The notes under the pieces: generated by a model
What the model was told of the DNA's origin: nothing
Seen by the model: only the letters and a program-made list of their open reading frames with translations
The model's database searches: none
Translations under genes and position numbers: made by a program
DNA from: an uncultured Mycoplasmatota bacterium
GTDB taxonomy: Bacteria; Bacillota_I; Bacilli_A; RF39; UBA660
NCBI GenBank assembly: GCA_948472605.1
Contig: CAOKUH010000001.1
Location: 1 to 34,463 of the forward strand
Length of the DNA: 34,463 bases
Direction of reading: 5' to 3'
Shown here: positions 7,001-28,494 of the stretch, piece by piece
Position numbering within the stretch: position 1 is the first letter of the stretch
Layout of the letters: each line of letters starts with the position of its first letter

Positions 7001-7031
7001 TTTTATTGTTCTTTGATAATTAGATAACTAA
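7001..7031. repeat. Left arm of a 31-bp inverted repeat (29/31 match) bounding a ~590-bp non-coding element
   Basis: TTTTATTGTTCTTTGATAATTAGATAACTAA. Its reverse complement matches 7560-7590 except for 2 central positions. Confidence 0.9.
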
Positions 7032-7032
7032 A

Positions 7033-7074
7033 CCATATGAAAGACAAAGGAAGCAACTTTGTATGGGTTTTTTC
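7033..7074 (+). terminator. Probable intrinsic terminator of the 4229-6961 operon
   Basis: Stem ACAAAG/CTTTGT (7044-7049/7057-7062) extended by CCAT/ATGG, followed by GTTTTTT. Confidence 0.45.
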
Positions 7075-7076
7075 TT

Positions 7077-7559
7077 GGTCTTATTACTTTAAAAAGCGAT
7101 TTTTAAAGGGATTGAGTTAGAAAATTTTGCAAATTATTTTCTTGGAGTTACAAAGTAATGAAAAAGAAAAAAGCAGTTTTATATTTTGGGCTTATAAGGT
7201 ACAGGACTAATCGTGATCATCATAAACTTTTTTGGTAGAAAACAAAAAGATTAACTTTTTTTCTTAATAGCTTCGCAACTATAGAGAGAAAAAGAAGGCG
7301 AAATAAGTCATCTGCAGTTGAAACGTAGTGATACGTTATAAGATTAGAAACTGGTTAAAGTAGCATAAATCTGCATAGAAGGGTTCGATTCCCTTAGAGA
7401 AGGTTAAAAAAATCCTAAAGCGTGTGAAATTTGGAAGTGCAAGTCTTCTTTAGTACAAAATGGTAAATGAAGAATAAGAGTCGCTCTCTTATGAGGGCAT
7501 TTACTAACTAGTGACTGAAATGAAAAATAAGTTTGAGTATAAAATGAATGAGAAAATCA
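7077..7559 (+). ncRNA. Candidate structured non-coding RNA, family unassigned
   Basis: No ORF above 60 aa on the + strand. T-arm-like AAGGG-TTCGATT-CCCTT (7379-7395). GNRA hairpin AACGTA-GTGA-TACGTT (7322-7337). Nested long hairpin 7463-7504 (GTAAATG...ATAAGAG-TCGCT-CTCTTAT...CATTTAC). Strand and ends are not established. Confidence 0.25.
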
Positions 7560-7590
7560 TTAGTTATCTAATTTTTAAAGAACAATAAAA
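7560..7590. repeat. Right arm of the 31-bp inverted repeat (partner 7001-7031)
   Basis: TTAGTTATCTAATTTTTAAAGAACAATAAAA. Confidence 0.9.
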
Positions 7591-18194: not shown

Positions 18195-18227
18195 ATAAAA
18201 AAAGAAAACTCATGGTTTAGTTTTCTT
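18195..18227 (-). terminator. Intrinsic terminator of the ger operon, overlapping the stop codon
   Basis: On the minus strand: AAGAAAACT-AAACCATG-AGTTTTCTT followed by a T run. Confidence 0.7.
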
Positions 18228-19245
18228 TATGTCTTATTAAATAAATAAACAAGCTTGGAATAGTTAAGAAAAATACAATGGTTATAAATATTGGAAATAT
18301 ATAATAAATAATTAATTCATTAGTATAATATTTACCGATTATAAGAAAAGAAATTAGGAATGACGCAAACAAAATTACAATATGGACTAATTCTTTTCTT
18401 TTTTTAGGTAGTAATTCCTTAACCATTAAAGATGCCATAGCTAGATAAATAAATACATCAAATATCCAAGATAAAGCAACAATATTTTCAATTTTTTCAA
18501 TAAAATTTAGTATTTTAATCTCTTTTAATATTATATATTCAGGAAATCTATATATACTTGCTAGTAAAGGGCCCACAATAGCAATAATTAGAAACATTTT
18601 AGCTATTAAAGTAAAACTTCCAAATAAATATGCTAGAGTACTATTACTTTTTTTGGTAGTTAACATTAAGATGGATGGAGATACTGATAATGAAGTATAG
18701 TAAAAAACTGACTTTAAAAAATCCATACCATTTGTAATAAATAAGGGTTTTATATTAGATATATTCATATAGCCACATAAAGCAAATAATGATAGAATAG
18801 TTAATGCTACCGAGATTGGAAGTAAAGAAGTAGCAACTCTAAATGTAGTTTTAACACCATCTTTAGTAATTTTTATTAGCAAAATTATTAAAGGCAAAGA
18901 AATAAACCAAATAGGAGTTTTAATCAAAAAGAAAGAAGAAGCAAATAATTGAATAAAAGTTAAACCTTCACAAAGTAAAGCAAAACCATAAAGTATAAAA
19001 ACAAATCTTAAGAGAATTCCTCCAACTTTCATTTCTTTTAGGACTTCATTTAAAGTTCTATCTCCTTTATATTTTTGAATCTTATTAATAAAAAATATAA
19101 ATATAAGCCCAATAATTGTTCCAACTCCAAAAGAAAGGAAACTATCCTGTCTAGAAAGACCAATTATAACAGAAAAACCAATTCCTAAAAATAAAGCTCT
19201 TGTTAAAAAATAATTTACTGCAAAATTTTCTAGTTTGCTTGTCAT
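18217..19245 (-). CDS. Spore germination protein, GerxB type (APC-like integral membrane subunit)
   Basis: About 10 predicted TM helices. Third gene of the ger operon. 4-nt overlap with the upstream gene. Confidence 0.8.
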   Translation of the reverse strand: MTSKLENFAVNYFLTRALFLGIGFSVIIGLSRQDSFLSFGVGTIIGLIFIFFINKIQKYKGDRTLNEVLKEMKVGGILLRFVFILYGFALLCEGLTFIQLFASSFFLIKTPIWFISLPLIILLIKITKDGVKTTFRVATSLLPISVALTILSLFALCGYMNISNIKPLFITNGMDFLKSVFYYTSLSVSPSILMLTTKKSNSTLAYLFGSFTLIAKMFLIIAIVGPLLASIYRFPEYIILKEIKILNFIEKIENIVALSWIFDVFIYLAMASLMVKELLPKKRKELVHIVILFASFLISFLIIGKYYTNELIIYYIFPIFITIVFFLTIPSLFIYLIRHKEN

Positions 19246-20348
19246 TCTTTCACCTCGAATATTAAACCATTACGATTGATAATAGCTTTAGATTTATATT
19301 TATAATCTAATGTTGTAAAATCAATATCTTTTTTGTTTTTTTGATAATAAATTTCCTCTATCTTTAAAATATCACTTTCATATTTGATAGATTTTTCTAC
19401 TACTTTTTGCATTTCTTTTTTTAATTGTTCTTCAACATTTTTTTGAATATTTTCATAAGTTTTTACTTCTTTAAAATCCATTTTACAATGATTTTCTACA
19501 ATTCTTAATTCAACTTCTACATCTATAGTTGCTGTTGTATCTTTAATCTCTATACTTGTTTTTGGTTTATCAAAAGTAGTTAGAACAATAAAATTACTAT
19601 TACTGCTACTATTATTATTATCATCAGAAGATGGACATTCTACTTTTAAATGTATTTCATTTGAACTGCCATTCATCACATTAAAAATTGCTGATTCATC
19701 TTCTGATAAAAAAGTTTGCATATTATATTTTTTAAAAATAGCTAGCGGACCTAGTTTTAAAATTCCATTTTCTATTTCTACAGAAGAAACATAAGTATCT
19801 TTTCGAGGATCAATAATGTTCACTACAAATTTTTCAAAATTTAAATCTGCAGCAATATTATTAGTAAAAGTTGTACTATCAATTAAATTAGCAATAGCAG
19901 TACTAGCAACAGGATTATTAGTATCAGTATTATTTATAACTTCAAAAGCACTTGTATCTTTAGCAATAGCCAAATAAAATATATTTCTAATATGATTATC
20001 TCGTATTAAAAAATCAATTATTTCTTCTACATGTTCTTTTGCAACCTCTTCACTAATTACTAAAGTTTTTAAATGAGCAAGATAAGGCGATTTAGCAATT
20101 TCTAAAGAAGCATCTGCAAAAGCTTCACTTAAAGAAGAACCAACCCCCTTAGTAAGATATACTTTACTACTATCTTTACTATCATCTTTATTAGTTGTAT
20201 TCAAGATTTCAAAAGCAACATTAAATTTATCTTCTTCATAATCAACAGAAATACCAGAGACAATAGCCATTTCATTTAACTCTGTATAATCAAAACAACC
20301 AGTACCTAAAGTTAAAATGAAAATACCTAAAATAAGTAATTTTTTCAT
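19242..20348 (-). CDS. Spore germination lipoprotein, Ger(x)C family
   Basis: Lipobox LTLGTG-C followed by the typical FDYTELNEMAIVSGISVDYE start. Operon context. Confidence 0.85.
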   Translation of the reverse strand: MKKLLILGIFILTLGTGCFDYTELNEMAIVSGISVDYEEDKFNVAFEILNTTNKDDSKDSSKVYLTKGVGSSLSEAFADASLEIAKSPYLAHLKTLVISEEVAKEHVEEIIDFLIRDNHIRNIFYLAIAKDTSAFEVINNTDTNNPVASTAIANLIDSTTFTNNIAADLNFEKFVVNIIDPRKDTYVSSVEIENGILKLGPLAIFKKYNMQTFLSEDESAIFNVMNGSSNEIHLKVECPSSDDNNNSSSNSNFIVLTTFDKPKTSIEIKDTTATIDVEVELRIVENHCKMDFKEVKTYENIQKNVEEQLKKEMQKVVEKSIKYESDILKIEEIYYQKNKKDIDFTTLDYKYKSKAIINRNGLIFEVKE

Positions 20349-21781
20349 ATGTTGCCCACCTTTTCTTTAATTTGATTTTTTTTTGCCAATAATTTACTTC
20401 GCTTTGTATCATTAATATATTTAACTTTAAATAAAGTCTTTTTAATATAAGTAAAATCAAAAGGTACAATAGGGTAGTAATAAGGTTTTCCTGCTGATTT
20501 TATACTTGTTATATGTATTAAAAAGTAAATGCTTGCAATTGCTATTCCATATAATCCATACATCGCTGCTAGTATTAAAAATAAAAATCTAAAATAACGA
20601 ATAGCATTAATAACTTCTAATTCCGTAAATATAAGACTAGTTATAAAAGTAAAGGCAATTATAATAATCATAATTGGACTTACAATACCTGCTGATACTG
20701 CTGCTTCTCCTAATACTAAGGCTCCTAATATGGATATAGCACTTCCATAACTAGAAGGAAATCTTAAATCACTTTCTCGTAATATTTCACAAACAATAAC
20801 CATAACAATAGCCTCAATAATAGTTGGAAAAGGAACCCCATCATTTTGAGCTGCAAAGTTAACTAATAAACTTGTTGGTATTGTTTCCATATTATAATTA
20901 ACCAAGGCTATATAAAAACCTGGAATAATCATTGTAAAGAAAAAACTTAAAAAACGTAAAATTTTTAAAAAATTAACATTAATATTACGATTATAATTAT
21001 CAACTACAGGATTTATAAAATCTGCAAAAAAGGAAGGTAATATTAAAACAAATGGGCTAGTATCAACCATTATACAAACTTTTCCCTCTAATAAAGCTGT
21101 TGCAATAACATCTGGTCTTTCACTTTGAGAAATAGTTGGAAAAGGCGTATTTTGGTCTTCTGATAAAATATTAGCAATATTTCCAGCATCTATTATGCCA
21201 TCAACATCAATTTTATTTAACTTATTCTTTATATTATTTACAATATCGATATCTGTGATATCATCAAAGTATAAAATTTGAACTTTAGTATTTGTTTTAC
21301 GCCCCATATTTAAATCATCACTTTTTAAATGACTTGATTTAATTCTTCTTTTTAAAAGTCCTAAATTAATTTGAATATTTTCAGTAAAGGCATCACTTGG
21401 CCCATAGATTGATTTTTGGACTTCAGGTACACTTACACTTCTATTAATATCCGCCTTTGTTTCAAAGCCTAAAATTTCTGCATTAGTTAAAACAATTGTA
21501 AAACCATTAGTCAAATAAAACTCTATTTGATCAAGTTTGGTAATTTTAACTGTATTAGGACCAGGTATAATACTTTCAATATTATATTTTTTAACATTTT
21601 TTAAATTATTAATAAAAGTTAATTGTTTTAATATATAATCATTTACTTTATCACTACCTGTAACACTTTCTAAATATATAACATAAATATTTCCAAAATG
21701 TTTTGTTTCAATTTTTTTGACAATAAAATCAGTATTCTTTTCAAATTCTTTTTCTAAACGTTTTAAAATTTTTTCTTGCAT
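20345..21781 (-). CDS. Spore germination protein, GerA/GerKA (A subunit) family
   Basis: Family pattern (ERPDVIATALLEGKVCIMVDTSPFVLILPSFFADF) plus C-terminal TM helices. Confidence 0.9.
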   Translation of the reverse strand: MQEKILKRLEKEFEKNTDFIVKKIETKHFGNIYVIYLESVTGSDKVNDYILKQLTFINNLKNVKKYNIESIIPGPNTVKITKLDQIEFYLTNGFTIVLTNAEILGFETKADINRSVSVPEVQKSIYGPSDAFTENIQINLGLLKRRIKSSHLKSDDLNMGRKTNTKVQILYFDDITDIDIVNNIKNKLNKIDVDGIIDAGNIANILSEDQNTPFPTISQSERPDVIATALLEGKVCIMVDTSPFVLILPSFFADFINPVVDNYNRNINVNFLKILRFLSFFFTMIIPGFYIALVNYNMETIPTSLLVNFAAQNDGVPFPTIIEAIVMVIVCEILRESDLRFPSSYGSAISILGALVLGEAAVSAGIVSPIMIIIIAFTFITSLIFTELEVINAIRYFRFLFLILAAMYGLYGIAIASIYFLIHITSIKSAGKPYYYPIVPFDFTYIKKTLFKVKYINDTKRSKLLAKKNQIKEKVGNI

Positions 21782-21862: not shown

Positions 21863-23062
21863 ATGGAAGATATAAAAATTGAAAAGTTAGATAATTTTGG
21901 TAGAGGAATATGTTACTTTAATAATAAAATAACATTTATTAAAAATGCTCTTCCTGATGAAATAATATCTTATAAAATTATTAAAGAAAATAAAAAATAC
22001 AATTTAGCAGAAGTAACTGAATATAAAAAATATTCAGAAAAAAGAACTAAACCATTTTGTCCCTATTATTTAAAATGTGGAGGATGTAATTTAGAACATC
22101 TTGATTATAAAAGTACATTGGAATTTAAATTAAATAAAGTAAAACAAATTTTAGATAAAGAAAAAATTATATATGATAATATTGAAATAGTTTCAAATGA
22201 AGTACCTAAAAATTATCGAAATAAGTTATCTTTAAAAGTAAAAGATTATCTAATTGGTTTTTATGAAGAGGGTACGCATAATATAATTGAAGTAAAAAAT
22301 TGTAGTATCGCTTATAATTCTATAAATGAAGTTTTAAAAAGAATAAAATATTTAAATATAAAAAATGGTAATGTAACTATACGAAGTAATTATAATGATG
22401 AAATATTATTGATAATTGATACTAATGATAAAATAAAATTTAATATTGCTCTTTTTAGCAACTTAAAAATAGTAGGAGTAATAGTTAACAAAAAAGTCAT
22501 TTATGGGCAAAACTTTTTTTATGAAAGCATTAATGGATATTTATTTAAAGTTAGTTTTGATGCATTTTTTCAAGTTAATCAATTTATAACTTCTAAATTA
22601 TTTAATATTATAGAAGAAAACATTGATGAATCTAATACAATACTTGATTTATATTCTGGGGTAGGAACGCTTGGAATAGTAGCAAGTAAAAAAGCTAAAA
22701 AAGTTTATAGTATTGAAATTGTAAAAAATGCTGTCTTAGATAATATTACAAATAAAAAATTAAACAAAAAAGATAATATTTATCCTATCTTGGGAGATGC
22801 CAAAAAAGTTATAACGAAAATAAAAGATAAGTTTGATACCATCTTAATAGATCCACCAAGAAAGGGATTGGATAGTTTATCCAAAAATTTAATTCTTAAT
22901 AATGATGTATCTAAAATTATTTATATTTCCTGTGATTTAATGACTCTTGTTAGAGATTTAAAAGAATTAACTAAGAAGTATAAAATAATTAAATATTATG
23001 TATTAGATATGTTTAGTTATACTTATCACGTTGAATGTGTATGCGTGATGACGAGGCGATAA
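21863..23062 (+). CDS. rlmD: 23S rRNA (uracil-C5)-methyltransferase RlmD/RumA family
   Basis: TRAM-like N-terminus, Fe-S cysteines (CPYYLKCGGCNLEH), SAM motif DLYSGVGTLG, DPPRKG, and the C-terminal ISCD...DMFSYTYHVECVCV typical of RumA. Confidence 0.9.
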   Translation: MEDIKIEKLDNFGRGICYFNNKITFIKNALPDEIISYKIIKENKKYNLAEVTEYKKYSEKRTKPFCPYYLKCGGCNLEHLDYKSTLEFKLNKVKQILDKEKIIYDNIEIVSNEVPKNYRNKLSLKVKDYLIGFYEEGTHNIIEVKNCSIAYNSINEVLKRIKYLNIKNGNVTIRSNYNDEILLIIDTNDKIKFNIALFSNLKIVGVIVNKKVIYGQNFFYESINGYLFKVSFDAFFQVNQFITSKLFNIIEENIDESNTILDLYSGVGTLGIVASKKAKKVYSIEIVKNAVLDNITNKKLNKKDNIYPILGDAKKVITKIKDKFDTILIDPPRKGLDSLSKNLILNNDVSKIIYISCDLMTLVRDLKELTKKYKIIKYYVLDMFSYTYHVECVCVMTRR

Positions 23063-23234
23063 ATCCTTTATAAATAAAGGAAAAATCAACTATTCAGTAG
23101 GGGTCAAAAAATGGTAAAAAACGAGTGAATTATTGATATTTTTACTAATTTTTGAAAAAAATACTATAGAGGTTGTCTGTGGAGAATATGTTTCATCATA
23201 CCACCCTAACTGGTATGTGCCTGAATAGTTGAAG
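23027..23234 (+). repeat. Module R1: last 36 nt of rlmD plus a ~170-nt conserved arm (first of three direct copies)
   Basis: Starts at CACGTTGAATGTGTATG. Aligns along its whole length with 24261-24467 and, more loosely, with 26421-26588. Confidence 0.9.
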
Positions 23235-23271
23235 TAAATAAAATATGTAAATAATGAGGTGAATAAAAATT

Positions 23272-24156
23272 ATGAATAATGATTTTAAAGTTGCAATTTT
23301 ACAATTAGATACAATTAACGATTCTGATAAGTCTTTGATTAAAGGAATAAAAGCATGTAAAAAAGCAAAAAAATTAGGCGCAGATATTGCTGTTTTTCCA
23401 GAAATGTGGAATATTGGTTATGAAATGCCAACTAACGAAAATCAAATAAATAAATGGATGTCAAAGGCAATAGCTGAAAATGAGAGTTATCTTTTATCTT
23501 TTAAAAATTTAGCATTAGAACTTAACATGGCTATTGGTATAACTTTCCTTGAGAGAACTGATGACTTACCAAAAAATTCTATTATTATATTTGATAGATT
23601 TGGAAATAAGATTCTAAAATATTCTAAAGTTCATACAGTAGATTTTAAAATGGAAAAGTTTACAAAGCCTGGTACTGAGTTTAATGTTAGCGAATTAGAT
23701 TATGAGAGAGGAAAAGTGAATATTGGAACAATGATATGTTTTGATAGAGATTTTCCAGAAAGTGCAAGAATTTTGATGCTAAAAGGTGCAGAAATTATAT
23801 TCGTTCCCAATGCGTGTTTTATGTCAAAAATACGTTTAGAGCAATTAAAGGTTAGGGCATATGAAAATATGGTGGGAATAGTTACAGTCAATTATTCTAC
23901 CAACGGTGGGAAGTCATCAGCATTTAGTCCAATTGTAAGAGATCAAAATAAGAATGAATTAGAAAGTAAACTTTTGATAATGGATGAAAAAGAAGATATT
24001 AAGATAATTAAATTTAATTTAGATGAAATAAGAAGTTATAGAAATAGAGAAACTTTGGGTGATGCTTATAGAAAGCCTTTATTGTATAGCTATATAAGTG
24101 AGGAACATATAAAAGAACCTTTTATAAGAAAGGATTCACGAAGAAACTTTAAATAG
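23272..24156 (+). CDS. Carbon-nitrogen hydrolase (nitrilase superfamily) protein
   Basis: Glu-Lys-Cys triad context: VFPEMWN, YSKVH, GTMICFDRDFPE. GAGGTG SD. Confidence 0.85.
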   Translation: MNNDFKVAILQLDTINDSDKSLIKGIKACKKAKKLGADIAVFPEMWNIGYEMPTNENQINKWMSKAIAENESYLLSFKNLALELNMAIGITFLERTDDLPKNSIIIFDRFGNKILKYSKVHTVDFKMEKFTKPGTEFNVSELDYERGKVNIGTMICFDRDFPESARILMLKGAEIIFVPNACFMSKIRLEQLKVRAYENMVGIVTVNYSTNGGKSSAFSPIVRDQNKNELESKLLIMDEKEDIKIIKFNLDEIRSYRNRETLGDAYRKPLLYSYISEEHIKEPFIRKDSRRNFK

Positions 24157-24260
24157 GATATATTCATAATTAACATTATACATATCTATTATGTATATTA
24201 TGACATAGTCAGTTATAACCAAACATATAAATTCTAACTCTTCATAATATACATTCTAGT

Positions 24261-24467
24261 CACGTTGAATGTGTATGTGTGTTAAATAGGCGATAAACCC
24301 TTATAAATAAAGGGAAAATCAACTATTCAGTAGGGGTCAAAAAAATGGTAAAAAAACGATAAAAAAATGATATTTTTACTAATTTTTGAAAAAAATATTG
24401 TGGAGGTTGTCTGTGGAGAATATGTTTAGTTATACTACCCTAACTGGTATGTGTTGACTAGTTGAAT
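24261..24467 (+). repeat. Module R2 (second copy of the rlmD 3' end plus arm)
   Basis: CACGTTGAATGTGTATGTGTGTTAAATAGGCGATAA encodes HVECVCVLNRR*. The arm is near-identical to R1. Confidence 0.9.
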
Positions 24468-24490
24468 TTATAATATAGGAGTAGATTATA

Positions 24491-25345
24491 ATGATAATTG
24501 ATAAAGGAATAATAGATGAAGCATTAAATTTTTATAATATAGATTTACAATATAAAGATAAATGTTATAATTGCATAGAAGAAATAAATAAAAAAGAGGA
24601 ATTAAATTTGGCTTTTCTAAATTTATATGAAAAATTATACATTGAAGAATTTACAAAAATAAAAGAATTATGGCATTATAGAGATGTAGATGATTTATTT
24701 GCACATAATACTAATTCTTTTGTTACTAATATAATGATTTTAATAGGTTATCATTATCATCAAGAAAATATGCAAAAACATAATTTTAATGATTTTCAAA
24801 TTAATATTCATAAAAAAAGAGTTAAGGAATGTTTTGAATATGACTTAAAAGTAAGAAAAAGAGATGGAGTTAGAGTATCACAAATGCTATGGGCTATTTA
24901 TTTTATTAGAACAAGAATCATTGAAATAGGTAGTCTACAGTTTGAATGTGATTCCGATTCAGTAATACAAATTCATATTCCTAAAAATACCGATTTAAAT
25001 ATTTTTAGTGTTAAAGAGTCGATTAAAAAAGCAACCATTGAAATGAAACAAATTTATTCAATGAATAATTTTAAGTATATATGTAATTCATGGCTATTAA
25101 GTAAACAAATATATGAAATTGCAGATAAAAATTCTAATATTTCAAAATTTTATGAATTGTTCAATGTAACTGAAGGAGAAGAATGTATTAATGATATATT
25201 AAATTTTGTATATGGAATAGACCAATGCGAAGATTATTCTTTATTACCTACAAATACTACATTACAAAGTAATATTAAAATTAAATTATTAGATGGTAGA
25301 AATTTTTACTCAGGTCTAGGTATTTTAAAAGAAAATGCTGTATAG
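24491..25345 (+). CDS. Acyltransferase-domain protein (N-acyltransferase N-terminal / GNAT-like C-terminal type)
   Basis: IGSLQFE...IHIPK and C-terminal CNSWLLS...NSNISKFYELF match my memory of this family. AGGAG SD. Confidence 0.5.
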   Translation: MIIDKGIIDEALNFYNIDLQYKDKCYNCIEEINKKEELNLAFLNLYEKLYIEEFTKIKELWHYRDVDDLFAHNTNSFVTNIMILIGYHYHQENMQKHNFNDFQINIHKKRVKECFEYDLKVRKRDGVRVSQMLWAIYFIRTRIIEIGSLQFECDSDSVIQIHIPKNTDLNIFSVKESIKKATIEMKQIYSMNNFKYICNSWLLSKQIYEIADKNSNISKFYELFNVTEGEECINDILNFVYGIDQCEDYSLLPTNTTLQSNIKIKLLDGRNFYSGLGILKENAV

Positions 25346-25370
25346 TGTTATTAGATTAGGAGGTACAATT

Positions 25371-26391
25371 TTGAAAAATGAAGTTATAGAAAATAATAAA
25401 ACAGAATTAATAATATATGAATCAAAAGATGGAAGCATCAAACCAGATGTCAATTTAGAAAATGAAACAGTTTGGTTAACTTTAGAACAAATGACAAAAT
25501 TATTCGGAAGAGATAAATCGGTAATTTCTAGGCATATAAAAAATATATTTGAAGAAGGTGAATTAGAAAAAAATGATTCAACTATTGCAAATTTTGCAAC
25601 AGTTCAAAAAGAAGGAACTAGAGTGGTTGAAAGAAATATAGATTATTATAATTTGGACGTAGTAATCAGTGTTGGTTATAGAGTTAAATCTTTAGAAGGG
25701 GTAAGATTTAGAAAATGGGCAACTGCAAGAATTAAGGAATATATTATTAAAGGATATACTATGGATGATGAACGCCTTAAAAATCTTGGTGGTGGTAAAT
25801 ATTTTTATGAACTTTTAAATCGTATTAAAGATATAAGATCAAGTGAAAAGGTTTTATATAGACAAGTTCTTGATTTATATGCTACTGATATTGATTATAA
25901 TCCTAAAGCTGAAGAAACAATAAAATTCTTTAAGATAGTCCAAAACAAGTTTCATTTCGCGGCACATGGCAATACTATAGCAGAAGTGATTTATAATCGT
26001 GCCGATTCAAATAGCCCTTTATGGGAATTACTAATTTTCAAGGAGAGTTGCCTAGTATAAGTGATATAGAAGTTCTAAAAATTATTTAACTGAAGAACTT
26101 TTGCTGCTTAATAACTTGGTTTCAGGTTATTTTGACTTTGCTGAATTTCAAGCAATGAAACATAAACCAATGAGAATGAAAGATTATATTAATCAACTAG
26201 ATAAAATACTTAATTCTTTAGATGCAAATATTTTAAATAATGCAGGCAGTATTAGTCATAAAAAAGCAAAAGAAAAAGTTAAATTAGAATATGAAAAGTA
26301 TAAGATAAAAGAGCTAAGTTCTATCGAAAAAGAATATTTAAATTCTATTAATAAAATTAATGAAATTGCTGATAAATTAAGAAAAAATTAA
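25371..26391 (+). pseudogene. rhuM: RhuM-family protein gene disrupted by two 1-nt frameshifts
   Basis: The N-terminal 230 aa (LTLEQMTKLFGRDKSVISRHIKNIF...GYRVKSLEGVRFRKWA) and the C-terminal part (NNLVSGYFDFAEFQAMKHKPMRM) lie in different frames. The connecting PFMGITNFQGELPSISDIEV is in the third frame. Shifts near 26013 and 26075. AGGAGG plus TTG start at 25371. Confidence 0.7.
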
Positions 26392-26420
26392 TGATATACA
26401 ATAGACATTGTATCCAAAGT

Positions 26421-26588
26421 CACGTTGAATGTGTATGTATGTTAAACAGAAGGTAAGTTTAGTTGGAGGCAAAAAATGTTGAAAAACGAGTAAATTGTTG
26501 ACTATTTGGTAGATTAGAAAAATTATAGGGGTATGTAGAGAATATGTTTCATAATACTCTCTAACTATTATGTATTGATTAATTGAAT
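26421..26588 (+). repeat. Module R3 (third, most diverged copy of the rlmD 3' end plus arm)
   Basis: CACGTTGAATGTGTATGTATGTTAAACAGAAGGTAA encodes HVECVCMLNRR*. The arm is homologous to R1/R2 but lacks the post-stop hairpin. Confidence 0.85.
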
Positions 26589-26595
26589 TTAATAT

Positions 26596-26850
26596 GGATG
26601 CGGACCAACCTCTATTGCAAACATTTTAGTTAATTTAGGTTTTGATATTGACCTTATATATGTGACCAAAAAAATAAAATTATAAATTTTCTTTAAACAA
26701 GGATGTATGGAAATTATTCATGTAGGTCCTTCAGAAAGAAGTTAGCTAACTTTTTCTAAAAATGGAGACTATTTAGTAATTAGTGTTATAAATAATAACG
26801 ATAATTTTTATGTAATTAATTCAAATAAATTGAAAATGAACAAGTAGGAA
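26596..26850 (+). pseudogene. Possible decayed fragments of a C39-like (papain-fold) peptidase gene
   Basis: Short frames read GCGPTSIANILVNLGF, then ...EIIHVGP..., then NGDYLVISVINNNDNFYVINSN, with stops between them. This resembles the CGPTS catalytic-Cys and GHY-VV-G-D...Y-NDP regions. Weak. Confidence 0.3.
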
Positions 26851-27002
26851 AAACATTTAAATATGATTAAATTATAAAAAATATTTATGGAAGAAAAGAT
26901 TTTTTTAATTTTCTTTTTATAGAAAAAGTACATAAATAGACAGCAATATATTAATTATAATTCGATAGTTACATTGAAGAAAATAAATGAAAGGAGTAAG
27001 AA

Positions 27003-27521
27003 ATGAAGATATATATAGTAAGACATGGCGAAGTTCCTCATAATGCTTTAGGACTATATAATAATGCTGATGAAGATTTAACAAAATTAGGAATAGTACA
27101 AGCAAAGGAATTAAGAGAAAAAATTAAAAATATAAATTTTGATATTGTGATATGTTCTCCATTAAATAGAGCTAAGCATACAGCAGAAATAATAACTAAT
27201 AATAAAATTATTTATGATGATAGAATAAAGGAAAGAAATTGTGGAAGTTTAAGTGGTAAGCCTTTAGAAGTTACAAATAGAGATGAATATTGGAATTACT
27301 ATAATGATATTAGTTATGGTACATCAGAAGATATAAAAATATTTTTTAAAAGAATTTATAATTTTTTAGATGAATTAAAAGCGAAGAAATATAAAAATGT
27401 TTTAATAATAGCTCATAGTGGAGTATCTAAAGCATTTAGTGGATATTTTGAAGGAATAAAGGATGGTAAATTTTTAAATAGAGGTCTTAAAAATTGTGAG
27501 ATAAAGGAATATCAATTATAG
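27003..27521 (+). CDS. Histidine phosphatase family protein (phosphoglycerate-mutase-like)
   Basis: N-terminal IYIVRHGE motif and a second catalytic His context (IIAHSGV). Confidence 0.8.
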   Translation: MKIYIVRHGEVPHNALGLYNNADEDLTKLGIVQAKELREKIKNINFDIVICSPLNRAKHTAEIITNNKIIYDDRIKERNCGSLSGKPLEVTNRDEYWNYYNDISYGTSEDIKIFFKRIYNFLDELKAKKYKNVLIIAHSGVSKAFSGYFEGIKDGKFLNRGLKNCEIKEYQL

Positions 27522-27567: not shown

Positions 27568-28494
27568 ATGAAAGATTTAAAAGTAATATTTATGGGAACA
27601 CCTGATTTTTCTGTTCCTGTTTTAGAAAATTTAATAAAAAATACAAATGTGGTCTTAGTTGTAACTCAACCTGATAAATTAGTAGGAAGAAAACAAATAT
27701 TAACACCTACACCAGTAAAAAAGCTTGCTCTACAACACAATATTCCTGTTTATCAACCTAATAAAATAAGAAAAGAATATGATGTTATTTTAAATACAGA
27801 GGCTGATATAATCATTACATGTGCATATGGTCAAATAATTCCTAAAATAATCCTAGATTATCCAAGACTTGGCTGTATTAATGTTCATGCATCTTTACTT
27901 CCCAAATATAGAGGAGGAGCTCCAATTCATCATGCTTTAATTAATGGCGATAAATTAACTGGAATAACTATAATGTATATGGAAGAGGCCATGGATAGTG
28001 GTGATATAATTACCCAAGAAGAAATGATAATTAAAGATGAAGATAATGTGGGAACTTTACATGATAAATTATCTCAAATTGGAGCAAATCTTTTAATTAA
28101 AACTTTACCTAATATAATAAACCAAACTAATGAAAGAATTAAACAAGAAGAAAACTTAGTAACTTATGCTTATAATATTAAAAGAGAAGACGAACATCTT
28201 GATTTTACTAAAAAAGGCCAGGAAATACTTAATCAAATCCGGGGCTTAAATCCATGGCCATTAGCAAATTTTTTCTTAGATAATGAAGAATATAAAGTAT
28301 TAGAAGCAAGATTTGAAGCTAGAAATAATTCTCTAAAAAAATTAGAAGTTACTAAAAATAGTTTAGGTATTCCTTGTCAAGATGGTATAATTTATCTAGA
28401 AAAAATAAAACCATTTGGCAAAAAAGAAATGAGCATTTTAGATTACTTAAATGGAATAGATAAAGAAATATTAAAAAATAAAAAAGTAGGTTAG
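27568..28494 (+). CDS. fmt: Methionyl-tRNA formyltransferase
   Basis: FMGTPDFSVPVLENL, HASLLPKYRGGAPI, and a C-terminal Fmt domain. Confidence 0.92.
   Translation: MKDLKVIFMGTPDFSVPVLENLIKNTNVVLVVTQPDKLVGRKQILTPTPVKKLALQHNIPVYQPNKIRKEYDVILNTEADIIITCAYGQIIPKIILDYPRLGCINVHASLLPKYRGGAPIHHALINGDKLTGITIMYMEEAMDSGDIITQEEMIIKDEDNVGTLHDKLSQIGANLLIKTLPNIINQTNERIKQEENLVTYAYNIKREDEHLDFTKKGQEILNQIRGLNPWPLANFFLDNEEYKVLEARFEARNNSLKKLEVTKNSLGIPCQDGIIYLEKIKPFGKKEMSILDYLNGIDKEILKNKKVG

Follow-up and report, generated by a model that had tools for sequence, protein, structure and literature searches.

The rlmD locus and its repeated gene ends

The DNA analysed here, referred to as the window, is a whole stretch of 34,463 nt from an uncultured, spore-forming gut bacterium, a member of the Bacilli, that is represented by metagenome data only, and it is very AT-rich (26 % GC). 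The region of interest lies directly downstream of rlmD, the gene for a 23S rRNA m5U methyltransferase, where copies of the rlmD 3′ end alternate with small genes. Feature coordinates are window positions, and L-numbers denote the related loci, approximately 15, with which the window was compared. The full rlmD open reading frame (ORF) occupies 21863–23062 on the + strand; its native body, upstream of the exchange point (21863–23026), carries the Pfam domains TRAM and tRNA_U5-meth_tr. In an earlier examination of the letters alone, here called the sequence-only reading, three copies of the rlmD 3′ end with the same orientation and a common start had been reported. This is confirmed, as the core 17-mer CACGTTGAATGTGTATG matches the window exactly three times, at 23027, 24261, and 26421, each time on the + strand (chance expectation 0.07; none of 100 shuffled sequences has three matches). 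All of these junctions begin at the CA of the His codon in HVECV, and 3′ of each core copy the module marker GTCTGTGGAGAATATGTTTCAT is found, at 23175, 24409, and 26531. The first copy (R1) is the genuine rlmD end, and GC content is 20.3 % in the rlmD body versus 47.2 % in the last 36 nt.

Junction 1, which is attL-like (23027–23062, +), consists of the last 12 rlmD codons (HVECVCVMTRR*) and is 100 % identical to the first copy in L034. These codons appear to have been supplied by an inserted element, with the CA at 23027–23028 as the presumed centre of exchange. They are followed by module 1, the left (P′) arm of cassette 1 as delimited by alignment (23063–23240, +), by the cargo gene of cassette 1, encoding a carbon-nitrogen hydrolase (23272–24156, +; Pfam PF00795, E = 7e-29), and by the right (P) arm of cassette 1 (24157–24260, +), which is conserved in the cassettes of other genomes. 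Junction 2 is internal and attP-like (24261–24296, +); it holds the second rlmD-end copy (HVECVCVLNRR*), with 10 of 14 dyad matches when centred on the CA at 24261–24262. Behind it lie module 2, the left arm of cassette 2 (24297–24475, +), and two cargo genes, one for a protein with a GNAT-like C-terminal domain (GNAT_C; 24491–25345, +; Pfam PF18164, E = 5.5e-29) and the other a frameshifted rhuM in two ORFs (25335–26060 and 26101–26391, +), both pieces of which match Pfam PF13310. The right arm of cassette 2, ATGATATACAATAGACATTGTATCCAAAGT (26392–26420, +), is shortened and degenerate; in the alignment approximately 30 nt are kept, with a 6-nt insertion. Junction 3 (26421–26456, +) holds the third rlmD-end copy, HVECVCMLNRR*, and is followed by module 3 (26457–26595, +), this most distal unit (R3) being the most decayed in the window. 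Pfam searches thus bear out the cargo as first described, a C-N hydrolase, an acyltransferase-domain gene, and a frameshifted rhuM, and likewise the lack of mobility enzymes: no recombinase, relaxase, or transposase domain was found among the window ORFs of at least 90 aa, eight of which have no Pfam match of any kind.

The module is non-coding and approximately 170 nt long. As had been claimed, a related arm follows every rlmD end and the third is the more diverged: R1 and R2 are 87–88 % identical across approximately 180–200 nt 3′ of the core, and R3 is 73 % identical to R1 and lacks a 29-nt hairpin segment directly 3′ of the stop codon. In module 1 the order is the post-stop hairpin, the motif AACTATTCA, an A-rich stretch, and a conserved block, GGTTGTCTGTGGAGAATATGTTTCATCATACC-loop-GGTATGTG; conservation is greatest in AAAAAATATTATGGAGGTTGTCTGTGGAGAATATGTTTCATCATACC..GGTATGTG. 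The motif AACTATTCA, the module copy of which lies approximately 60 nt past the core, is also present in the right arm, and a further motif, TCATAATWWACATT, occurs two or three times in the arms. An RNA structure in the module is at most faintly suggested by these data. Compensatory variants are seen in the terminal hairpin only (CATACCA/TGGTATG, CATACTA/TAGTATG, and CATAATA/TATTATG), and a symmetric protein-binding palindrome would give the same changes. Single-sequence fold z-scores are unremarkable (−2.2 to +0.2), the covariation term of the alignment fold is −0.81 kcal/mol, and Rfam gave no match to the module, either at gathering thresholds or with E up to 10. A promoter and terminator scan found no enrichment (32 sites versus 35.1 ± 5.5 in shuffled sequences) and no −35/−10 pair that is consistent across the copies. 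Each window module contains a 5-codon mini-ORF (MVKNE* at 23110–23127, MVKKR* at 24344–24361, and MLKNE* at 26475–26492) preceded by Shine-Dalgarno-like AGGGG/GGAGG; a conserved leader peptide was considered and rejected, the mini-ORF being absent from L009, the third copy in L034, and L037. Because all of the cargo follows the module on the rlmD strand, it is plausible that the module contributes to the expression of cargo or is bound by accessory factors of recombination.

A likeness between the sequences just left of the second and third copies had also been remarked upon, and this proves to be the inner end of a right arm of approximately 100 nt (24157–24260 in the window) that precedes the internal core copies, the repeat unit being larger than first described. 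The right arm is kept at 75–85 % identity in L031, L032, L034 (twice), L039, L040, and L063. It has an outer motif, TCATAATTAACATT, a central stretch, TATTATGACATAGTCAGTTATA, which is of rlmD 3′ coding origin, and a dif-like inner half-site, AACTCTTCATAATATACATTCTAGT; the inner 25 nt, AACTATTCATAATATACATTCTAGT, form the half-site directly adjoining the core. In L031, an rlmD-like ORF at 9–521 (47 % identical to the RlmD of L029) continues into the right arm, BLASTP aligning it up to DIVSYTQ versus DMFPYTE, and a 38-nt segment between this ORF and the HVECV core shifts the frame, the ORF ending in ...YKQRTLNVYAC*. The ORF may be a resident rlmD that has been disrupted, or else a long piece of rlmD that a cassette carries, and it points to the origin of the right arm. 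The peptide encoded across the right arm, when used as a search query, returned no candidate.

Empty sites, native ends, and exchanged cargo in related loci

Empty sites are present in L005, L006, and L007, where rlmD has a native end (HHVESFVVLERKKE.., HIESFCVLKKK*) with neither core nor module. By GerAA, the closest relatives of the window are L005 and L008 (91 % aa identity), the contig of L008 ending inside rlmD so that its rlmD end is not visible. One complete cassette is present in each of L032, L039, and L040, in the order rlmD body, ECV-type end with module, cargo, right arm, and then a native rlmD end without a module (HVECVTILHRKK.., HEESVVVLERG* and HVESFCVLEKKEQ). In L063 there are three cassettes, after which comes a native HVESFCVLKLQ end at junction 4, with no module behind it. 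Because the native distal ends in these four loci are without the module, the module belongs to the element, as its left (P′) arm, and not to the chromosome.

Cassette number also differs where the native flank is the same. A common flank, consisting of a response regulator, a histidine kinase, and an ABC transporter where the contig reaches, is shared by L005, L036, L039, L063, and L034; there are no cassettes at this flank in L005, one in L039, two in L034, and three in L063, and in L036 there are approximately 3.6 kb of extra genes in which cassette ends were not found. Compared with R1 of the window, nucleotide identity is 54–67 % in the last 150 nt of rlmD, 83–100 % in the 36-nt end, and 81–92 % in the module (L029, L031, L032, and L034), and the RlmD proteins of those loci are only 41–48 % identical to that of the window (48 % for L034). 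Among 120 RlmD homologues, HVESF-type ends are in the majority and the ECVCVLNRR-type C-terminus is scattered. Cargo is exchanged behind nearly unchanged arms: over the 200 nt that start at the CA, R2 has a left arm with 96 % identity to those of L039 and L031, behind which a methyltransferase and RhuM are found, not GNAT_C.

When 241 million metagenome records were scanned with a pattern taken from the module alone, four true loci (six copies) were obtained, together with three GC-rich chance matches. In each true locus the module stands directly behind an rlmD-end core, and the proposed linkage of module and rlmD is upheld. The same constancy would be expected if the module were a native regulatory element or small RNA downstream of rlmD and its copies were local tandem duplications, and the conserved hairpin with compensatory changes could be read in the same way. 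Such an explanation is scarcely credible, however, and is already contradicted by the empty sites. The closest relatives do not have the module, nor do the native distal ends in the four loci, the cargo between copies is unrelated among genomes, and the absence of an Rfam match, the fold z-scores, and the small covariation term given above all tell against it. The sequence-only reading had proposed integrase-less islets stacked at rlmD by repeated site-specific insertion, and had looked to relatives for empty or variant sites; with empty sites, differing cassette numbers, and differing cargo all found, this proposal holds, and the comparison of loci supports what appears to be site-specific accretion at rlmD.

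Within the species, too, the window array is not fixed, as L056, L057, and L059 have a deletion that runs from the 3′ end of rhuM to the middle of a histidine phosphatase gene, with loss of junction 3. Because these deletions end inside it, the histidine phosphatase gene (27003–27521, +; identified by Pfam) is part of the native flank, outside the array; His_Phos_1 as the cargo of a third cassette was rejected on the same evidence. The gene is followed 3′ by fmt (27568–28494), also native flank. Between module 3 and the phosphatase gene is a non-coding stretch (26596–27002, +) that is a candidate scar of a third, cargo-less unit, with a vestigial arm at approximately 26678–26721 and a possible remnant of a native rlmD end (CATGTAG...AGAAAGAAGTT) at approximately 26722–26765. 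When this stretch is aligned collinearly with a composite of the L039 arm and the native end of L005, the score is 52.9 (null 39 ± 6.8), a value reached by 10 of 300 shuffled sequences (p approximately 0.03). The earlier suggestion of a possible third cassette at 26589–27002 is therefore favoured only slightly.

Other features of these loci were noted. In L003, a strain with an identical RlmD protein, there is a 29-nt deletion between module 1 and the start of the CN_hydrolase gene (L003 1740–1760 versus window 23240–23275). Upstream, rlmD is adjoined by a divergent gerA-type spore germination operon (GerAA, GerAC, and spore permease; window 18217–21781, −), an arrangement kept in every relative examined, and synteny 3′ of rlmD is not conserved. 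Elsewhere in the window, at 7009–7579 (+), there is a full-length ROOL RNA (Rfam RF03087; 147.7 bits versus a gathering threshold of 99.1, model positions 1–574), flanked by an ORF without a Pfam match and by another ORF of unknown function. Neither tRNA nor tmRNA genes were found in the window.

In total, ten cassettes in six genomes could be delimited on both sides. Their cargo comprises CN_hydrolase; GNAT_C with RhuM; an S-adenosylmethionine (SAM)-methyltransferase with RhuM; an EEP-family protein with truncated RhuM; two AAA_18 kinases with a HAD hydrolase; a ThiI-like protein with a 2-thiouridine-desulfurase-like protein; ORF6N; ATP-grasp; and an Rce1-like protein with RhuM. AAA_14/DUF4143 (L009) and AbiEi/AbiEii (L037) also follow a module, at loci where the right cassette ends were not found. 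Candidate defence genes were identified with PADLOC, RhuM matching PDC-S05 and AAA_14/DUF4143 matching PDC-S01. The RhuM pieces of the window have 86–87 % aa identity to the intact, 341-aa RhuM of L034.

Cassettes with RhuM at their right end occur in the window, L034 (two), L039, L042, and L063, and RhuM is present also in the cassette of L031. In L042, where the element is not delimited, the N-terminus of a MobV relaxase follows a truncated rhuM. Both the recurrence of RhuM and the MobV fragment give a hint that the cassettes stem from an integrative mobilisable element (IME). It is possible, though doubtful, that the cassettes are nothing but dead remnants of full-size IMEs, bearing rhuM, kilA-N/ORF6N, a mobV relaxase, and an integrase, that had inserted at rlmD and lost their mobility genes by deletion, the arms being alike because the events are recent and nothing moving now. 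Deletion is the standard route that has been proposed for the formation of cis-mobilisable elements (CIMEs; PMC5704250). Other apparent remnants fit this explanation: an intact ORF6N gene in L063, an ORF6N/KilA-N-like remnant after the module in L009 (recognised by eye only), the rhuM pseudogene of the window, and the arm of the second L034 cassette, which abuts a truncated rhuM. However, all ten delimited cassettes are small and integrase-less, and independent decay should have left larger intermediates. In addition, the arms are 75–96 % identical across hosts with 41–64 % RlmD identity, and one arm is found with different cargo, both of which fit maintained cis-acting sites better than remnants.

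The apparent exchange point and the search for a recombinase

The locus probably holds a tandem array of small mobile cassettes, without a recombinase of their own, that were stacked by site-specific insertion at one point in rlmD. That point would lie 36 nt ahead of the rlmD stop codon, at the CA with which the His codon of the catalytic HVE motif begins. Each cassette, of 1.2–2.2 kb, consists of a left arm of approximately 210 nt (12 replacement rlmD codons and the 170-nt module), cargo of one to three genes co-oriented with rlmD, and the right arm of approximately 100 nt. On insertion, the rlmD body would be joined to the left arm and the earlier end moved downstream, behind the right arm. 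Because the rlmD body is joined to the left arm, an HVE..* end would be kept and the junction would remain target-like, and repeated insertion beside rlmD would result in stacked cassettes. The recombinase would be provided from elsewhere, by a visiting integrative and conjugative element (ICE), an IME, a phage, or the chromosome, and would act in trans, as for CIMEs.

The junctions of right arm, CA, and left arm are quasi-palindromic (ATATACATTC-TAGT-CA-CGTT-GAATGTGTAT). Moving the dyad centre away from the CA of the His codon lowers the symmetry: with the centre exactly there, 8–11 of 14 positions match in the four attP-like junctions, and summed over ten junctions there are 72 dyad matches versus 19–54 for centres shifted by 1–6 nt.

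Several observations weigh against insertion at a single point by a recombinase acting in trans. The apparent exchange point is not constant: it falls within 2 nt of the CA in L039, where CA is all that the two junctions have in common, and within 5 nt in L040, where they have only TCATGT in common, versus shared tracts of 14–23 nt in L032 and L063. Either later gene conversion or a longer identity core is needed to account for this spread, and the bounds given by hybrid junctions are in conflict, at 2–5 nt or less from the CA in L039 and L040 versus 14–21 nt or more in L032 and L063. No circular form or excision junction came to light, the tools used here being unable to look for them. The last junctions in the window and in L034 are followed by a module, without a recognisable native end. 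A recombinase linked to the core did not materialise, there being none in the window or beside any cassette in the approximately 15 loci compared, so that one ground for refutation named in the sequence-only reading, the lack of any such link in the clade, still stands, and nothing was found in the phage, plasmid, and viral collections that were searched.

The variable exchange point and the 14–23-nt shared tracts are what homologous recombination might leave. By this explanation no dedicated recombinase is required; circles with approximately 340 nt of rlmD-end homology would integrate in Campbell fashion, or double crossovers in the arms would swap cargo. The length of the repeat unit (the 100-nt arm that is partly rlmD-derived, the 36-nt core, and the 170-nt module) and the finding of one arm with different cargo are also in keeping with it. 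Nevertheless, it is very unlikely to account for the array. First insertions in L039 and L040 share 2–6 contiguous nt with the native ends, which is far too little for RecA-dependent recombination, and the native distal ends of L032, L039, L040, and L063 have no module and hence offer no homology on that side. Nor would a palindrome centred exactly on the exchange point be expected.

The inner right arm raises the possibility of Xer recombination, in the manner of integrative mobile elements exploiting Xer (IMEX) and dif modules, with host XerC/XerD acting on a dif-like site there. When reverse-complemented, the inner arm reads ACTAGAA-TGTATA-TTATGAATAGT (window 24235–24262, L031 471–498, and L034 2553–2580) and matches the dif site of Bacillus subtilis, CCTAGAA-TATATA-TTATGTAAACT (sequence in PMC3025954), at 19 of 23 positions by eye, and the site is kept in most arms. 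Because single cassettes carry only one dif-like site, Xer-driven insertion is unlikely, and taken as a whole the explanation is highly improbable. In the single-cassette loci L032, L039, and L040 this one site is at the right end, nothing dif-like is recognisable in the rlmD target, and the step in identity and the dyad centre both lie 17–22 nt to the right of the dif-like central region. The resemblance to dif may be that of a mere AT-rich palindrome. A dif module has dif-like 28-bp sites at both boundaries and integrates at dif; here the site is in the right arm only, and the array does not qualify as a Xer-dependent dif module.

The recombinase was sought by several routes. Searches of viral, phage, and plasmid sequences with the module, the core, the arm, and the whole unit gave no matches or chance matches only; the match in L015 was discarded as chance, since it lies inside a phage ORF in another frame, as were the GC-rich matches in L106 and L107. 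In the genomic contexts of RlmD homologues with ECVCV-type ends and of the window cargo proteins, no integrase was found beside a cassette. Likewise, Pfam analysis of cargo and fetched loci found neither recombinase nor relaxase in the cassettes delimited on both sides, and no cognate ICE or IME with an integrase was found. The MobV lead from L042 was followed and rejected, as it led to a different locus, with a large serine recombinase in rhuM but none of the core, arm, or module motifs.

With regard to that other locus, the 52-aa N-terminal MobV/Pre fragment of L042 matches 250 database proteins, the best 120 of the 250 all being 46–91 aa long and 75–96 % identical to it. The mob gene of L045 to L050 is annotated in two pieces, ORFs of 90 and 338 aa with a short overlap of a few nt (L045 10001–11283), a pattern suggestive of frameshifting at a conserved site or of a gene that is split as a rule. 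At L045 18240–20271, the 3′ part of a rhuM gene contains the end of a 558-aa large serine recombinase (domains Resolvase, Recombinase, and Zn_ribbon_recom), apparently because an element has inserted there. The window and the L045 sample come from one study series, and the rlmD core, arm, and module motifs are absent from the L045 locus.

As to the class of enzyme, a serine recombinase appears to be somewhat short of an even prospect, a tyrosine recombinase slightly less probable, and any other class unlikely. A large serine recombinase would be favoured by the rumA precedent described below, by the CA-centred dyad, and by the 2-nt identity in L039. A tyrosine recombinase would be favoured by the long arms with repeated motifs and by the faithful regeneration of the gene end.

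Relation to known elements and meaning

CIMEs and the tandem accretion of ICEs and IMEs are described for the ICESt1/ICESt3 family (Pavlovic 2004; Bellanger 2011; both as reviewed in PMC5704250). Like CIMEs, the cassettes are att-flanked in direct orientation, lack recombination and transfer genes, stand in tandem at the 3′ end of a conserved gene, and have internal junctions that are attP/attI-like. They differ in being far smaller (1.2–2.2 kb, with one to three genes), in always sharing the orientation of the target gene, in having long conserved arms combined with many cargos across distantly related hosts and no identified cognate ICE or IME bearing an integrase, and in that their hosts are uncultured spore-forming Bacilli, not streptococci. 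The array is a CIME-like tandem accretion at the known rumA/rlmD hotspot, in a miniature modular form. What is distinctive about it is the combination of miniature, uniform, co-oriented cassettes, two long arms shared across hosts whose RlmD identity is approximately 40–60 %, exchanged cargo, and a rebuilt target-like junction.

At the streptococcal hotspot, rumA is targeted by ICEs and IMEs with a single large serine integrase, the gene of which carries the att site (PMC4701971; PMC5704250); insertion alters the frame and length of the RumA C-terminus, and direct repeats are 2–21 bp (PMC4701971). The attL of ICESluvan in rumA is CACGTGGAGTGCGTAGTGTT, which starts with CACGTGGAGTGCGTA, encoding HVECV, and the CA dinucleotide has been proposed as the exchange point (PMC4735348). 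The streptococcal core that was given in the sequence-only reading, CACGTGGAGTGCGTA, is therefore real, being the start of this attL; the integrase-borne att site and the altered RumA C-terminus that go with it are not seen here. ICESluvan, IME_SpnAP200_rumA, and CTn5 of C. difficile 630 delta-erm share with the present cassettes the same target gene and the same HVECV codons, but here there is no integrase, the repeats comprise 36 nt plus an arm of approximately 170 nt, and an in-frame HVE..* end is regenerated. No Resolvase or Recombinase domain was found in the window or beside any cassette, and the right arm of L031 aligns to an rlmD-like 3′ end, not to an integrase. As there is no integrase gene bearing an att site, and as the gene end is regenerated and not altered, the cassettes are not members of the rumA serine-integrase family of ICEs and IMEs. 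A separate observation concerns L010 (11195–12615), a more distant relative in which rlmD ends in HVECVSVLSRKAQ and a second copy, CACGTGGAGTGCGTATGCTTACTTAACTTGCATTAA (HVECVCLLNLH), lies 1.3 kb downstream; the first 15 nt of that copy are those of the published ICESluvan attL, and in L040 rlmD is joined to this same variant of the left arm.

Tyrosine-integrase islands at the 3′ ends of tRNA, tmRNA, and protein genes resemble the cassettes in that the element carries a replacement target end, copies of the end mark successive islands, and long attP arms have repeated motifs; the tandem ssrA islands of Dehalococcoides are an example (PMC3146451). The cassettes differ from these in having no integrase beside the att site, and the identity with the native target is as low as 2–6 contiguous nt (L039 and L040).

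There is also some likeness to integrons, in that short cassettes without a recombinase share one orientation and may grow from one fixed, regenerated site. Here, in contrast, there is no intI and no attI beside an integrase, and the anchor is the coding end of a housekeeping gene. No single-strand hairpin architecture of the attC type is apparent, the junctions being quasi-palindromic around CA and the module having a covarying hairpin and unremarkable fold energies. Lacking intI and attI, the array does not qualify as an integron. A bolder interpretation, which is unlikely but worth stating, would have rlmD as a dedicated gene-capture platform, integron-like but unrelated to integrons, where an unlinked recombinase inserts miniature cassettes beside rlmD and excises them, each cassette bearing a split, CA-centred palindromic site formed by its right and left arms. 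The conserved 170-nt left arm would then provide expression signals to promoterless, co-oriented cargo, including candidate defence genes. Because each insertion rebuilds a target-like junction, an array of this kind would grow outward from rlmD.

With site-specific accretion of recombinase-less cassettes as the preferred interpretation, small accessory and candidate defence genes (RhuM/PDC-S05, AAA_14-DUF4143/PDC-S01, AbiE, small kinases, hydrolases, and methyltransferases) seem to move among distantly related Bacilli of the gut as 1–2 kb cassettes, all of which have the same two arms and dock at one nucleotide position of a housekeeping gene. Failing the discovery of a recombinase, the array would be a well-delimited CIME-type accretion at the rumA hotspot, outside the streptococci in which that hotspot was described. 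The integron-like platform would become much more interesting if both a trans-acting recombinase and excised circles were found. Should a trans-acting recombinase be found, the cassettes would constitute a compact, sequence-defined Firmicutes cassette system with a ready-made attB/attP pair, and would provide a simple rule by which metagenomes could be searched for these islets, namely an rlmD end that is foreign and GC-richer, with the module behind it.

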